Below are positions 19,768 through 24,829 of a DNA stretch of 31,080 bases, piece by piece. The notes under the pieces were generated by a model, which saw nothing but the letters and a program-made list of their open reading frames with translations, had not been told where the DNA came from and made no database searches. The number at the start of each line of letters is the position of its first letter. Position 1 is the stretch's first letter. The position numbers and the translations under genes are program-made. Source of the stretch: Methanocella sp. (GTDB taxonomy: Archaea > Thermoproteota > Bathyarchaeia > Bathyarchaeales > Bathycorpusculaceae); the NCBI GenBank assembly GCA_050261115.1, contig JBLNCY010000028.1:1-31080 (forward strand), given 5' to 3'.

Positions 19768-20073
19768 ATGGGAAAGAAAAAAGTACTATCCGAAGGCGCA
19801 ATAAGCGAAATGGTTTACCCCGCTCAGGGTGAAGTTTTAGGTGTGGTTACTAAGCTGCTTGGCTTTGACCGCATCCTAGTCAAATGCCAAGATGGCGCCG
19901 AACGTCTCTGCCGTATCCGCGGAAAAATGAAACGCCGCGTTTGGATACGCGAAGGCGACATAGTTATTGTATCACCATGGGATTTCCAGACTAACGAGCG
20001 CGGAGACGTCGTTTGGCGCTATACCCATGCCCAAGCTGAAAACCTAAGACGCAAGGGCTTACTAAACCTCTAA
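19768..20073 (+). CDS. eif1a: Archaeal translation initiation factor aIF-1A
   Basis: GVVTKLLG..CQDG..RLCRIRGKMKRRVWIREGD.V.VSPWDFQ..GDVVWRYT. Confidence 0.97.
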   Translation: MGKKKVLSEGAISEMVYPAQGEVLGVVTKLLGFDRILVKCQDGAERLCRIRGKMKRRVWIREGDIVIVSPWDFQTNERGDVVWRYTHAQAENLRRKGLLNL

Positions 20074-20209: not shown

Positions 20210-22585
20210 TTGAAACTTTTTTTCTGGCTGCTAGATATAAACCCTAAAGTTAACGACGGCAAAGTAGACATCTGGCTATGGGGCATCGACCAGTCAGGAA
20301 ACCGCATCCTACTAATCGACCACAACTTTAGCACATACTTCTATGCTGTCCTGCATGGCGCAGCGGACGGGACACTAATTTTACAGCAGATAATGCTTCG
20401 CTATGGCGGTCTTGTTTCCAACGCAGAAGTTGTTTCCCGCCGATTTTTTGGTAAACCCGTTACCGCAATCAAAGTTACATGCAAAGTTGCTACCCAAGTC
20501 ACCAAAATAGCTCGGCAAGTGCGCAAACTCGATGGCGTATCTGACTGCTATGAGGACGACATACGCACTGCCATGCGTTACTTAATAGACAACAATGTTA
20601 TTCCCTGCGGTTGGAATGAAGCTGACGTAGGGCCAGAAGAGTTTCCGCCACCGGTTAGAGCCTCAAGCGTTTACAAAGTTAATTCCTCGCCTAGGTCGGT
20701 GGAAGACGTCGGGGTTACGCCCGCTTTGCGGGTGATTGCTTTTTCCATGATTTGCTACAGTAAAGAAGGAACCCCAAAACCTGACCGAAACCCCATCCTA
20801 ATGATCTCCATTGTTGATAGTCAAGGTGGCCAAAAACAGTTCATCGCAAACCAAGACAGAGACGATAAACAAGTTATTCAAGAATTCATCCCATACATCC
20901 GCCGATTCGACCCAGATGTTATTGTAAGTTATGGCGGGAACACCACTGACTGGAATTATCTATTGCAGAGAAGTCATCTGCATGGTTTTTTGCTTAATCT
21001 TGACCGGGGCTCCTTTGAGCCGCATGCAAGCATATATGGCCATATGGCGATTGCGGGTATAGCTAATGTGGATTTAGTTGATTTTACCGATATGTTTCCA
21101 GAAGTCAAGGTCAAGACCCTTGAACATGTCGCTGATAACTTGGGTGTCACTATGGGGCAACGGGGAGTTATAGACCAGGTCTTATTCGCTGACTACTGGG
21201 ATGACCCCGACAAGCGTGATCTGCTGCTTGCTTTTAATTTAGATAATGCCCGCCGAATATACGGTGTTGCTTTGTTGTTGCTTGATTTCGCTATACAACT
21301 CTCCAGCCTAACTAATCTCCCCTTAGATCATGTGATGACCGCCGCCACGGGCTTCCGCGTCGAATGGTATCTGATTAAGCGGGCGCAGAAGTCCAGCGAG
21401 ATAATTCCTCGACGCGTAGAACAATCCTACATGCCCTACACGGGTGGACTCGTGCTCTCCCCCAAGCCTGGGCTGCATGACAATGTTGCTGTTTTAGACT
21501 TCAAGTCCATGTACCCCAACATCATGATAACTTACAATATTTCGCCCGACACCTACATTCAACCAGGCGACCCTTTACCTCCTGACGGTGTCTATGTGGC
21601 GCCTGAAGTAGGATACCAATTCCGAAAATCACCCCCTGGATTTTACAAAGAAGCCCTCACTTACCTACTTGATGTGAGACGCCAAATACGCCAAAAAATG
21701 AAAACCCTGACTGCCAGTTCTGTTGAGTATCAGGTGCTGGATGCCCGCCAAAAAGCGGTAAAAATCCTAACCAACGCAGCTTACGGATACGCTGGCTGGG
21801 TAGGGGCAAGATGGTACATAAAACCCGTAGCTGAAGCAGCCTCAGCATGGGGGCGACACATCATCTTAACCGCCTCACAGACGGCACAGCAACTACACAT
21901 TCAAGTAATCTACGGAGACACAGACAGCCTCTTCATAAAATACGACAAAGCAAAAGCAGAACAGCTACAGGCAAACATACAAAGAGACCTAAAGTTCGAG
22001 GTGGAAATCGGTGAGATTTATCGGCGGATTTTCTTTACGGAGGCAAAGAAACGCTATGCTGGGCTGCGTCAAGACGGCAGTTTGGATATTGTGGGTTTGG
22101 AGGTTATTCGGGGTGACTGGGCTGAGGTGGCAAAGAAGGTGCAGGAGCATGTGCTTGAGATTATTCTAAAGGAGCAGTCGCCCACGGAAGCGCTTGAGTA
22201 TGTTAGGGGTGTTGTGAAGGACTTGCGGCGTAGGATTGTGCCGCTTGAAGATTTGGTTATTTGGAAGACGCTTACAAAGCCACCTAAGGCGTATGCTGTT
22301 AGGGCTCCGCATGTGGAGGTAGCTAAGATGCTAATCGAGAAGGGTTGGCGGCTTAGTGTCGGCGACAAGGTGGGGTATGTGGTGCTATCAGGGAAGGGGC
22401 CTTTGTATGCACATGTCGCGCCCTACGTTTATGCCAAACCCGATCAAATAGATATGGACTACTATATTACTAACCAAGTTCTGCCGGCTGCGGCGCGTAT
22501 ACTTAACTTTTTTAATGTAACCCAAAAAGAGTTAGAATCAAAAACAAAAGAAGAAAAAACAAAAAGCCTAACAGATTATTTTTAG
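20210..22585 (+). CDS. polB: Family B DNA polymerase (PolB3-like) with degenerate 3'-5' exonuclease motifs
   Basis: DFKSMYP, KILTNAAYGY, YGDTDS, KKRYAG, RGDW and C-terminal PIP-like TKSLTDYF. Confidence 0.95.
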   Translation: MKLFFWLLDINPKVNDGKVDIWLWGIDQSGNRILLIDHNFSTYFYAVLHGAADGTLILQQIMLRYGGLVSNAEVVSRRFFGKPVTAIKVTCKVATQVTKIARQVRKLDGVSDCYEDDIRTAMRYLIDNNVIPCGWNEADVGPEEFPPPVRASSVYKVNSSPRSVEDVGVTPALRVIAFSMICYSKEGTPKPDRNPILMISIVDSQGGQKQFIANQDRDDKQVIQEFIPYIRRFDPDVIVSYGGNTTDWNYLLQRSHLHGFLLNLDRGSFEPHASIYGHMAIAGIANVDLVDFTDMFPEVKVKTLEHVADNLGVTMGQRGVIDQVLFADYWDDPDKRDLLLAFNLDNARRIYGVALLLLDFAIQLSSLTNLPLDHVMTAATGFRVEWYLIKRAQKSSEIIPRRVEQSYMPYTGGLVLSPKPGLHDNVAVLDFKSMYPNIMITYNISPDTYIQPGDPLPPDGVYVAPEVGYQFRKSPPGFYKEALTYLLDVRRQIRQKMKTLTASSVEYQVLDARQKAVKILTNAAYGYAGWVGARWYIKPVAEAASAWGRHIILTASQTAQQLHIQVIYGDTDSLFIKYDKAKAEQLQANIQRDLKFEVEIGEIYRRIFFTEAKKRYAGLRQDGSLDIVGLEVIRGDWAEVAKKVQEHVLEIILKEQSPTEALEYVRGVVKDLRRRIVPLEDLVIWKTLTKPPKAYAVRAPHVEVAKMLIEKGWRLSVGDKVGYVVLSGKGPLYAHVAPYVYAKPDQIDMDYYITNQVLPAAARILNFFNVTQKELESKTKEEKTKSLTDYF

Positions 22586-23811
22586 GCTTGATCTTTAGGA
22601 ATGACGCTTTGGAATGTCATCAATTCAACGTTAAGCGCGGGCTTCACTGCTTCTGAGACGCGTGAGGCAACGATGCGTTTGATGTTTTTGTCTCCTGCAA
22701 TGTCAACGATACGTTGGGTGATGATGCCGTCAAAGACTACTGTGTCCACGCCTGAGATTTGCTGAAGTCTCTCGGCAAGCTGGCTTACTGGTAGGCGCTC
22801 AATTAACTCAAGTTTCTCGTTTAAGACGACTGCTTCAAGTGTGCCCACGAGCGCTTTTGCTGCTTGTATGATTGTGTCTGGTACCTCGACTTTTGGGGGT
22901 TTGGGACGTTCTTGTGGTGGTGGAGGTACTTGGACCTGTGGCTGCGGTGCTGGAGCTTTCTTGGGTTGCGGTGGCGCAGGTTGCTTGCCTTGGAGTAGTT
23001 CGCTGACTGGCACACGGCCTTCGATTGCTTCGTTGATTTCTTTGCAGTTGCATTCTTCGATTTCTTTTCCGCGTGGTGCGCGGCCGATGTATTTTATGTT
23101 GGTGACTTGGAGTAGCTCTTTTTGGATTAAGTCGCCGCCTCTGTCGCCGTCAAGTAATGCCGTTGCATTGCGTTCTTTGGTTATTTTTCTGATTGAGTCG
23201 GGGACTTTGGCGCCTTCAAGTGCTACAGTGTTAAAGATTCCGCAGCGCATGAGGTTTATGATGTCTGCTCGACCTTCGACTACAAAGATTTCTTTGGCGC
23301 CTTCTAAGCCTGGGCCTGCAGGTAGGTCTTCGGGGCCGTATTTTTCGACTTTGCCTACTTTCATGGTGTCACTTATTTCTTTGTAGACTTCATCTACGCT
23401 TGGCATTGATTCGATGTTCCAGCGGTGTAGGATTTCTTTTGCGCGGTCTATGATGATTTTTCGGCGGGCTTCTCGTATGTCTTCGATGCGTTCGAGGGTT
23501 ACTTTGGCGCTGCAGGGGCCTACGCGGTTGATGCTTTCTACGCTTGCGGCTATGAGTGCTGTGGATACTCGGTCGAGGCTGGTGGGTATGGTTATGCTGC
23601 CGTTTGTGCGGTCGTTTTTAGAGTGTAGGTCGATTTCGATTCTGCCGATGCGTCCGGTTTTCTGTAGTTCTCGGAGGTCGAGTTCTGGGCCGAAAAGTCC
23701 TTCTGTTTGGCCAAAGACTGCGCCTATAACATCGGGTTTTTCTACTACGCCTTCAATTTCAAATCTAGCATGTACAACGTACTTTATCGTAAAGGTTTGG
23801 GATTGTCCCGT
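22582..23811 (-). CDS. dnaG: Archaeal DnaG (TOPRIM primase-like, exosome-associated), about 409 aa, non-canonical start
   Basis: The frame stays open 135 codons upstream of the track's ATG 23406 and encodes KY.....EIEGVVEKPDVIGAVFGQTEGLFGPELDLRELQKTGRIGRI; TOPRIM VVEGRAD and DGDRGG; VFDGIITQR. Start inferred at ACG 23811. Confidence 0.93.
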   Translation of the reverse strand, partial: TGQSQTFTIKYVVHARFEIEGVVEKPDVIGAVFGQTEGLFGPELDLRELQKTGRIGRIEIDLHSKNDRTNGSITIPTSLDRVSTALIAASVESINRVGPCSAKVTLERIEDIREARRKIIIDRAKEILHRWNIESMPSVDEVYKEISDTMKVGKVEKYGPEDLPAGPGLEGAKEIFVVEGRADIINLMRCGIFNTVALEGAKVPDSIRKITKERNATALLDGDRGGDLIQKELLQVTNIKYIGRAPRGKEIEECNCKEINEAIEGRVPVSELLQGKQPAPPQPKKAPAPQPQVQVPPPPQERPKPPKVEVPDTIIQAAKALVGTLEAVVLNEKLELIERLPVSQLAERLQQISGVDTVVFDGIITQRIVDIAGDKNIKRIVASRVSEAVKPALNVELMTFQSVIPKDQA

Positions 23812-23868
23812 AAATATACAACTCCTGTAAATTATTTGTTATTTATTTGATTATGTAATCGTCACTTA

Positions 23869-23889
23869 TTGCGAGTGTTCTACTCGCAA
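23869..23889. promoter_or_regulatory. Perfect 8-bp inverted repeat between dnaG and the ParB-like gene
   Basis: TTGCGAGT-gttct-ACTCGCAA. Confidence 0.45.
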
Positions 23890-24046
23890 GATGAGATTAT
23901 GATCTGATTAGAAATTAGGGTGCATGCCGTCATATAACACTTGTGGTATTGTAGCACAGACAGATAAGAGGCTATCCCCCCGTTTTACATGCGTTCCTCC
24001 TTGCACTTTTATATACTTACACATACAACAAGGATTAGGATCCCAC

Positions 24047-24829
24047 ATGAGCCTGCGCATAAACCCAACTTACGATAAGATGCTACCCCGCATGTCTGAG
24101 GAAGAATTCGCTGAACTAAAAAAATCCATAGAAACCGAAGGCCAACACTATCCCATCATAGTAAACGAAGACCTCGAAGTACTCGACGGACATCACCGCT
24201 ATCGCGCCTGTGTCGAACTTGGCATAGACCCTGATTTCGAAGTCAAAAGATTCGAGGACAAACTCCTTGAGAAAAAATTTGTCATAGAAGCTAACCTAAG
24301 AAGGCGCCACCTAAACAACTTTCAACTTGTCGAGTTAGCAGTGCCTCTGCTTGAAATCGAAAAGGCACTGGCAAAACAGCGGCAACCCAAAAGTGGCAAA
24401 AGCGATGCCATTCAGCAATTCAATGCTGAAGAAGAGGATTTGCCCCTTGAGCCTGTAATCAAAGCAAAAGCAACCGAAGTTGTCGCCAAAAAGGCAGGTG
24501 TCTCAACCCGTACGCTTGAGAAGGGTAAAAAAATTCTAGAAAAAGCCGACGAAGAAGACTTGCAGAAGCTTAGGGAAGGCAAGACAAGCATATCCCGAGT
24601 GTATCAAGAAATAGTCAACGCCGGCAAACCTCCCGCGCCAGAGCCCGAACCCCCCAAGTTAGATCCGGCTCAAGAGCTACGCAACAAAGAAGAGCTACTT
24701 ACAATCCTAGAGAAACTGCTAAACAACGACCTCTTCTGCCCATCTTGCGGTAACACCATGTTTGAATGCAGCAAATGCCACCGTAACCTCAAAGAGTTAC
24801 TTGCAAAATTCAAAGCAGAAAACCTCTAA
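24047..24829 (+). CDS. ParB/Srx N-terminal-domain protein with HTH and C-terminal zinc ribbon
   Basis: LKKSI..EGQHYPIIVN...VLDGHHRYRAC, NLRRRHL, VAKKAGVSTRT, CPSC..CSKC; TTTATATA about 32 nt upstream of ATG 24047. Confidence 0.85.
   Translation: MSLRINPTYDKMLPRMSEEEFAELKKSIETEGQHYPIIVNEDLEVLDGHHRYRACVELGIDPDFEVKRFEDKLLEKKFVIEANLRRRHLNNFQLVELAVPLLEIEKALAKQRQPKSGKSDAIQQFNAEEEDLPLEPVIKAKATEVVAKKAGVSTRTLEKGKKILEKADEEDLQKLREGKTSISRVYQEIVNAGKPPAPEPEPPKLDPAQELRNKEELLTILEKLLNNDLFCPSCGNTMFECSKCHRNLKELLAKFKAENL

Follow-up and report, generated by a model that had tools for sequence, protein, structure and literature searches.

A conserved near-cognate ACG codon as the probable translation start of dnaG in an order of Bathyarchaeia

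The window analysed here is the whole stretch of 31,080 nucleotides (nt) of contig JBLNCY010000028.1 (assembly GCA_050261115.1), which is deposited as Methanocella sp. and placed by GTDB in the order Bathyarchaeales of the Bathyarchaeia; the source names of its close database relatives are Candidatus Bathyarchaeia, Bathyarchaeota and Bathycorpusculum. On the minus strand of the window lies dnaG, whose reading frame is open from a TAA at 23841-23839 to a TAA at 22584-22582, and we focus on the ACG codon at 23811-23809, from which this gene is probably translated. From the upstream stop the frame reads CAA ATA ATT TAC AGG AGT TGT ATA TTT, followed by the ACG, GGA and CAA. A preliminary description, made from the letters of the window, had reported that no in-frame ATG, GTG or TTG occurs between the upstream stop and the ATG at 23406-23404. 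When the frame was read again, 144 sense codons were counted between these two points and none of them was canonical, and no motif resembling a Shine-Dalgarno (SD) sequence was seen in the sequence preceding that ATG.

The start-less part of the frame encodes a conserved portion of the protein. The stop-to-stop translation (P0001, 418 codons) corresponds to full-length archaeal DnaG and matched the NCBIfam equivalog NF003108 (DNA primase DnaG) with 458 bits against a cut-off of 300. Positions 1-419 of the profile were aligned to residues 19-408, the start of the profile falling 9 codons after the ACG, and a TOPRIM domain was found centrally, at residues 183-254 (PF01751, 25.4 bits; PF13662, 25.1 bits). 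The approximately 135 codons following the ACG code for the N-terminal domain, and the alignment from residue 19 onwards upheld the earlier statement that the start-less stretch encodes the conserved N-terminus of DnaG. In Sulfolobus, this domain is described in the available extract of PMC4227792 as RNA-binding and as working with the exosome. The N-terminal 153 residues were 79-96% identical within the family of the window and 68-81% identical in the other matches listed from the order. Over the N-terminal 130 codons, the ratio of nonsynonymous to synonymous substitution rates (dN/dS) was 0.018-0.075 against 11 relatives, with synonymous sites saturated in 3 more, which shows that this stretch is translated and is kept by purifying selection. 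The dS of the same codons was 0.7-2.4 against 9 relatives of the own genus and was saturated between several genera.

We also compared the frame with the background of its own genome (G000, 2.15 Mb in 66 contigs), in which 2512 stop-to-stop frames reach 120 codons or more. In dnaG, a run of 144 codons precedes the first canonical start; the 99th percentile of such runs among these frames is about 128 codons. The codon-usage log-odds of the start-less part was 0.435 per codon, and that of long genes cut into pieces of 100 codons was 0.31 on average. Both the length of the run and its coding score exceed the expectation by chance.

An SD motif stands upstream of the ACG. The 16S rRNA of this genome has the 3' end GATCACCTCCT, and the core AGGAG at 23826-23822 stands 10 nt before the ACG. 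Among 193 canonical genes of the genome, the spacing between GGAG and the start peaked at 8, 9 and 10 nt (39, 39 and 30 genes, respectively) and was 4 nt in one gene. The ACG had been proposed to lie in the ordinary register behind the SD motif, and its 10-nt spacing indeed belongs to this modal class. Translational coupling to an upstream open reading frame was rejected for the dnaG of the window because no ATG was present in any frame within about 100 nt preceding the ACG. In another family of the order (f7), the SD motif of dnaG (GAGGTGA) contains an in-frame TGA and is preceded by a conserved (A/G/T)TGATTGAGGTGA, for example in loci L025 and L130; in that family dnaG, with an ACG or an ATG start, may be translationally coupled to an upstream gene.

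The comparison of dnaG 5' regions among relatives, which the preliminary description had named as a check, was extended to the whole order. A search with the N-terminal 153 residues of DnaG matched 187 of 201 genomes (38 of 41 in an earlier draw), and the 5' end of dnaG was read in 170 distinct genomes. Classification was done in three passes: the first motif pattern missed 18 loci, of which a looser pattern placed 14 and a third look placed 3 together with one extra genome. The eighteenth, in genome G093, was left out because a contig end cuts the locus, which gave 169 classified genomes. The column homologous to the ACG of the window, located four codons or in some lineages three codons ahead of a conserved Gln, contained ACG in 100 genomes, ATG in 48, TTG in 18, GTG in 2 and CTG in 1, and no other codon, synonymous Thr codons included, was found in it among the 169 genomes. 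Read as sense codons, these would specify Met, Val, Leu, Thr and Leu; a column limited to AUG, GUG, UUG, ACG and CUG therefore carries the signature of an initiation codon.

The ACG was kept in 67 of the 69 genomes of the window's own family (f1; 22 genera), with ATG only in G006 and G090. It was also the codon of all three genomes of family f3 and of the single genomes of families f8 and f9. Family f6 contained ACG in 4 genomes (two genera) and ATG in 19, and in family f7 the counts were 24 for ACG (22 of the 23 genomes of one genus and both genomes of another), 16 for ATG, and 1 each for GTG and TTG. Families f2, f4, f5, f10, f11 and f12 had canonical starts except for the single CTG, which occurs in G052 (family f11, locus L174), where the sister genomes have TTG. 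Outside the order, the 63 genomes of the class that were read by eye (60 regions and 3 loci), which is not a formal classification, mostly showed ATG, TTG or GTG near the N-terminus; among them, G306 (locus L323) has ACG where two sister genomes carry ATG, and G334 is ambiguous.

Comparison of the ACG with the codons around it points to constraint on the codon itself. In the 69 genomes of family f1 the start codon was never ACA, ACC or ACT, while a comparison Thr codon located 7 codons downstream was ACG in 24, ACT in 18, ACC in 21 and ACA in 6, and a nearby Tyr codon was TAC in 33 and TAT in 36. The start is fixed as ACG while the nearby Thr codon varies, and its third base therefore appears to be held as if pairing were needed. 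The middle C has been retained though a single C-to-T transition would give ATG. Across the order, the codons after the ACG (Gly, a variable residue, Ser and Gln) vary synonymously (GGA/GGT/GGG, TCA/TCC/TCT/TCG and CAA/CAG), and the codons before it differ at first and second positions (ATA/ACA/ACG and TTT/CTT/ATT) and merge into the SD motif; in several relatives an in-frame stop lies a mere 4-5 codons before the ACG. On these comparisons, the ACG codon is itself under purifying selection and is not a recent accident.

The first pass of the classification yielded 96 ACG genomes, all of which had an SD-like motif, and the commonest classes of motif and spacing were common to the relatives with ACG and those with ATG. 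In 72 of the 96, no in-frame canonical codon was found from the upstream stop to the ACG. In 16, the sole canonical codons were located 2 to 5 codons upstream, in or adjoining the SD motif (such as the GTG within GGAGGTG), and in the remaining 8 they stood further away, at distances that varied between 12 and 50 codons upstream.

The codon was also examined in public sequencing data. The sequence of 23300-24000 was found in 17 public runs from 14 studies, which shows the organism to be widespread, including 6 RNA libraries and 8 DNA runs that contained all sampled words of this stretch; the reads, to which the preliminary description had pointed as a guard against an assembly error, thus agree with the assembled sequence. 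Contigs of four RNA libraries (X12, X13, X15 and X16) cover the ACG and have no differing letter at this codon, with differences listed at four other places, so that variants were indeed being recorded. The RNA retains the C of the ACG, and there is no majority C-to-U editing. RNA coverage stops in the intergenic stretch and resumes in three runs but not in X16, with contigs of X13 and X15 beginning at 24058, which favours transcripts over contaminating DNA as the source of these contigs. The contig ends (23861, 23871, 23915 and 23960) cannot fix the transcription start of dnaG.

With respect to the decoder, the initiator tRNA of the genome is of the ordinary archaeal type, with A1:U72, three G:C pairs in the anticodon stem (GGG/CCC) and the anticodon CAU, and this CAU tRNA is the sole one with initiator features. 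The tRNA-Thr(CGU) is close to its UGU isoacceptor over the 50 bases compared and has no initiator features there.

Taken together, we estimate a probability of about 0.8 that translation of dnaG begins at the near-cognate ACG at 23811-23809 behind its SD motif. In the proposed mechanism, the 3' end of the 16S rRNA would pair with AGGAGtTG and set the ACG in the P site, the initiator Met-tRNA (CAU) would read it through one C-A mismatch at the middle base, and the product would be full-length DnaG of 409 residues, presumably with an N-terminal Met. Selection would retain the ACG as a brake built into the synthesis of DnaG. To our knowledge, initiation at near-cognate codons has been inefficient in every case measured, and the ACG has been held throughout a family and beyond it despite a one-step route to ATG, so a brake on DnaG appears the most likely explanation; the codon is probably kept by selection to hold DnaG synthesis low. 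The initiator Met-tRNA as the decoder, the low efficiency of the start and a purpose in dosage control are all three what we infer.

Several observations weigh against this interpretation and have to be set beside it. An in-frame TTG, GTG or ATG upstream of the ACG, which could be used instead, is carried by 24 of the 96 first-pass ACG genomes, and in three genomes of families f3 and f8 an ATG stands two codons before the ACG. RNA contigs drop minor variants and RNA libraries may hold DNA, and partial editing would be compatible with the contigs. The argument for selection for low expression is drawn from conservation, and the codon data speak for constraint, not for purpose. A genome-wide count of the codons located 4-11 nt behind a strong SD motif found ACG 3 times, with no enrichment compared with many codons; this count took every in-frame codon behind each SD motif in a long frame with no near canonical start and was dropped as crude and uninformative.

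Other explanations for the missing canonical start were weighed against initiation at the ACG. Translation might begin at another nearby non-canonical codon, namely the ATA at 23817-23815, the ATA or ATT at 23835-23830, or the ATA at 23787-23785, which encodes the Ile before Lys-Tyr. Gene callers have variously chosen each of these, the database entries for proteins of relatives begin at codons of this kind, and NCBI table 11 lists ATA and ATT as starts. We consider this unlikely for reasons that differ among the codons. The codon two before the ACG is ATA, ACA, ACG, AAC or TCG in relatives, and the ATA at 23817-23815 is thus unconserved and only 4 nt from the SD motif, a spacing seen in 1 of the 193 canonical genes, as befits the weaker alternative that it had been called from the outset. 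The codons at 23835-23830 are located upstream of the SD motif. The Ile codon at 23787-23785 is GTA in 8 of the 69 genomes of the family, and the residues from the ACG to Lys-Tyr are conserved with synonymous variation, so translation should begin upstream of them; moreover, the upstream stop in some relatives leaves 4-5 codons before the ACG. Equally, it would be conceivable that the N-terminal region is untranslated, with a start at the ATG 23406, the first canonical start of the frame, and an N-terminal domain that has been lost or a gene that is decaying. The dN/dS of 0.018-0.075 over 130 codons upstream of this ATG at a dS near saturation, the DnaG model match starting at residue 19 of the stop-to-stop frame and the status of the N-terminal domain as a conserved RNA-binding domain in archaeal DnaG (according to the extract of PMC4227792) make this highly improbable.

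Two further alternatives accept the ACG as the start site and differ in how it would be read. The mRNA might be edited from ACG to AUG by C-to-U deamination in the manner of plant organelles, which would fit the several genes of the lineage in which a genomic ACG occupies the very position of the ATG of relatives. This is very unlikely, given that the contigs of the four RNA libraries show no other letter at 23809-23811 and that editing would leave the ATA and CTG starts of the same lineage unexplained. Alternatively, a non-standard decoder, either the tRNA-Thr(CGU) or a lineage change in aIF1 or aIF2, might make the ACG a true and efficient start. The recurrence of ACG, ATA and CTG starts in the lineage would suit such a decoder, as would the report of some N-terminal Thr from an ACG start in Escherichia coli (extract of 10.1101/063800), but the tRNA-Thr(CGU) resembles its UGU isoacceptor and initiator features are found only on the CAU tRNA, and we regard this alternative as improbable to the same degree as editing. 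An assembly error or a private mutation is refuted by the ACG in 100 separately assembled genomes and by the 8 DNA runs with all sampled words.

Non-canonical starts were also sought elsewhere in the genome of the window by a scan for coding-like frames without an early canonical start, and two candidates were each compared with 40 genomes of the family. For the Ntn amidotransferase gene (G000:C31:8224-8973, minus strand, L181/L190), the start-Gly-Cys column was compared at 30 loci: it is ACG at 2 of them (that of the window's genome and that of a single relative), ATA at 11 and ATG at 2; 13 loci had an ATG further upstream and 2 were unclassified. The 11 family genomes with ATA had no canonical alternative, and from these alignments ATA seems to act as a start in family f1 as well. 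The NMNAT gene (G000:C12:14795-15475, plus strand, L184/L220) has ACG here and ATG, TTG or GTG in 28 of the 29 loci of relatives, 1 being missed by the pattern, and its ACG start is by this comparison private or recent. As judged from these alignments, near-cognate starts are tolerated sporadically in the lineage, with dnaG as the extreme case in which ACG is fixed across the family and recurrent across the order.

The same genome holds a few further frames of this kind. An SD motif was found 7-8 nt before an in-frame ACG at G000:C64 offset 12298 and G000:C8 offset 43143 (both plus strand; L183 and L182), without an early canonical start; their products are one large protein and one methyltransferase-like protein. 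SufS-like, TrpE-like and acyltransferase-like genes without an in-frame canonical start were found at G000:C31:80377-81126, G000:C16:9846-10595 and G000:C34:10996-11745 (L187-L189). In each of them an ATG behind an SD motif lies in a different frame, with runs of A after it; a frameshift, a homopolymer error or a non-canonical start could account for this.

A conserved hairpin was located upstream of the SD motif (Table 1). For this test, 68 sequences of family f1 were aligned with MAFFT, the structure was written by eye, and pairs were then counted. Over the 15 pairs, 80.6% of cells were paired versus 27.5-48.6% when partners were slid, a control that flatters the hairpin since the structure was derived from the same sequences. 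Double changes are the better evidence: 12 pairs had changes on both sides, with 71 doubly changed cells compared with 27.9 ± 4.3 after shuffling (0 of 500 shuffles reached this value). RNAalifold gave no consensus structure on the same 68-sequence alignment, and an Rfam scan of 23600-24150 with E up to 1 gave no match. Sequence conservation is seen in the outer stem and in the flanks, which are AATCTC (5') and GATTAAAC (3'), and covariation in the inner stem; the four RNA-library contigs over dnaG extend into or beyond the hairpin. A similar 3' flank is visible in family f6 with ATG starts, and the hairpin therefore seems not to be tied to the ACG. It is a candidate that may represent an mRNA leader element or a protein-binding site.

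With regard to the neighbouring genes, polB (20210-22585, plus strand, listed from a TTG) converges with dnaG and overlaps it by 4 nt at the stops (22582-22585), and the RNA contig of X13 spans the 3' ends of both. The gene for aIF-1A is two genes away from dnaG, as previously described (open reading frame 19768-20073, plus strand, with polB in between); the link between dnaG and aIF-1A suggested on that occasion is speculation. On the other side, a plus-strand open reading frame of 301 codons is listed as beginning at 23924. An internal ATG further downstream is the more probable start of this neighbour, and its transcription start may be near 24058, where the contigs of X13 and X15 both begin.

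Table 1 Features of the dnaG locus and RNA-library contigs covering the proposed start (positions of the window)
Feature	Position	Strand	Basis or remark
Proposed initiation codon ACG of dnaG	23809..23811	-	Homologous to canonical starts in the census of the order
Coding sequence proposed for dnaG (409 codons, the ACG included, and the stop TAA 22584-22582)	22582..23811	-	NF003108, PF01751, PF13662
Shine-Dalgarno motif AGGAGtTG, core AGGAG 23822-23826	23819..23826	-	Complementary to the 16S rRNA 3' end at 7 of 8 bases
In-frame upstream stop TAA	23839..23841	-	Closes the frame 9 codons before the ACG
DnaG N-terminal domain coding, without in-frame ATG, GTG or TTG	23407..23808	-	Frame reading, dN/dS
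First in-frame canonical start ATG	23404..23406	-	A start here would yield 274 residues and omit the N-terminal domain
Conserved hairpin, 46-87 nt upstream of the ACG	23857..23898	-	Inner stem 23888-23882/23876-23870; outer stem 23898-23891/23865-23857
RNA-library contig X12 over 23809-23811	23406..23960		
RNA-library contig X13 over 23809-23811	22400..23915		
RNA-library contig X15 over 23809-23811	22636..23871		
RNA-library contig X16 over 23809-23811	22609..23861		

A search limited to open-access PubMed Central and bioRxiv found no paper on ACG initiation in archaea or Bathyarchaeia; one match that mentions ACG seven times deals with a tRNA-Thr of a virus, not with initiation. Near-cognate ACG starts are known from eukaryotes and their viruses, such as those of VP2 of adeno-associated virus and of the C' protein of Sendai virus. 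The dnaG of the window would resemble these in that a codon one base from AUG is the real start, presumably read by the initiator Met-tRNA with an output below that of AUG. In eukaryotes and their viruses, however, the ACG is chosen by a scanning 40S subunit and its nucleotide context and is the start of an alternative isoform, whereas in dnaG it follows an SD motif and would be the sole start of a conserved housekeeping gene. In plant organelles, ACG is edited to AUG at start codons. The likeness is the genomic ACG at the starts of conserved genes where relatives have ATG, and the difference is that in dnaG the C is still present in the contigs of four RNA libraries.

A parallel for a weak start kept in a housekeeping gene under selection is bacterial infC, which has a conserved AUU start, likewise one base from AUG, and is autoregulated by its product IF3. 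In dnaG the codon is ACG and not AUU, and DnaG is no initiation factor, so that there is no evident feedback loop. In infC-type autoregulation the product discriminates against its own weak start; here the product is DnaG, and aIF-1A is encoded by a separate gene. According to the extract of PMC4705826, IF3 is a fidelity factor, aIF1 rejects AUU in Sulfolobus, and archaea permit GUG and UUG besides AUG. In an E. coli reporter with all 64 codons, ACG was among the codons giving 0.1-1% of the output of AUG, and N-terminal Met was found (extract of 10.1101/063800). Ribosomes led by an SD motif can thus start at ACG in that reporter, as is proposed for dnaG, but the reporter is artificial and involves no natural E. 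coli gene, whereas the proposed start of dnaG is natural and conserved. Ribosome profiling in Haloferax volcanii placed about 30% of putative alternative initiation sites at near-cognate codons, which were set aside to limit false positives (PMC7261190, in the part available). Putative near-cognate sites thus occur in this archaeon too, but that part of the paper reports no conserved ACG start that defines a gene.

Gene finders disallow ACG, and the annotation of dnaG and of other genes of the lineage suffers from this. Among 12 database records of DnaG that were compared, at least 7 different N-termini were observed, some extended upstream and some shortened by up to about 35 residues, and none of the 12 starts at the ACG. 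The predicted DnaG of the window starts at an upstream ATA (MIYRSC), and entries at NCBI start with MLTGQ, MTYRSC, MKYVVHA or MGAVFGQ.

Archaea combine SD selection of the bacterial style with initiation factors that resemble those of eukaryotes. A near-universal archaeal gene for which ACG is the sole start available, in 100 genomes assembled separately, represents a natural experiment on how strictly archaea check the start codon. A more far-reaching reading, which we hold tentatively and think possible rather than probable, is that the ACG is a selected throttle or sensor, with start stringency on SD-led mRNAs of the order relaxed such that ACG, AUA and CUG work, and with the synthesis of DnaG, as the RNA-binding subunit of the exosome, tied to the initiation machinery through the activity of aIF1 or aIF2, perhaps together with the 5' hairpin. 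If this were true, Archaea would have their first natural example of near-cognate initiation used for regulation, and ACG should be included in the set of starts used for annotating the lineage.

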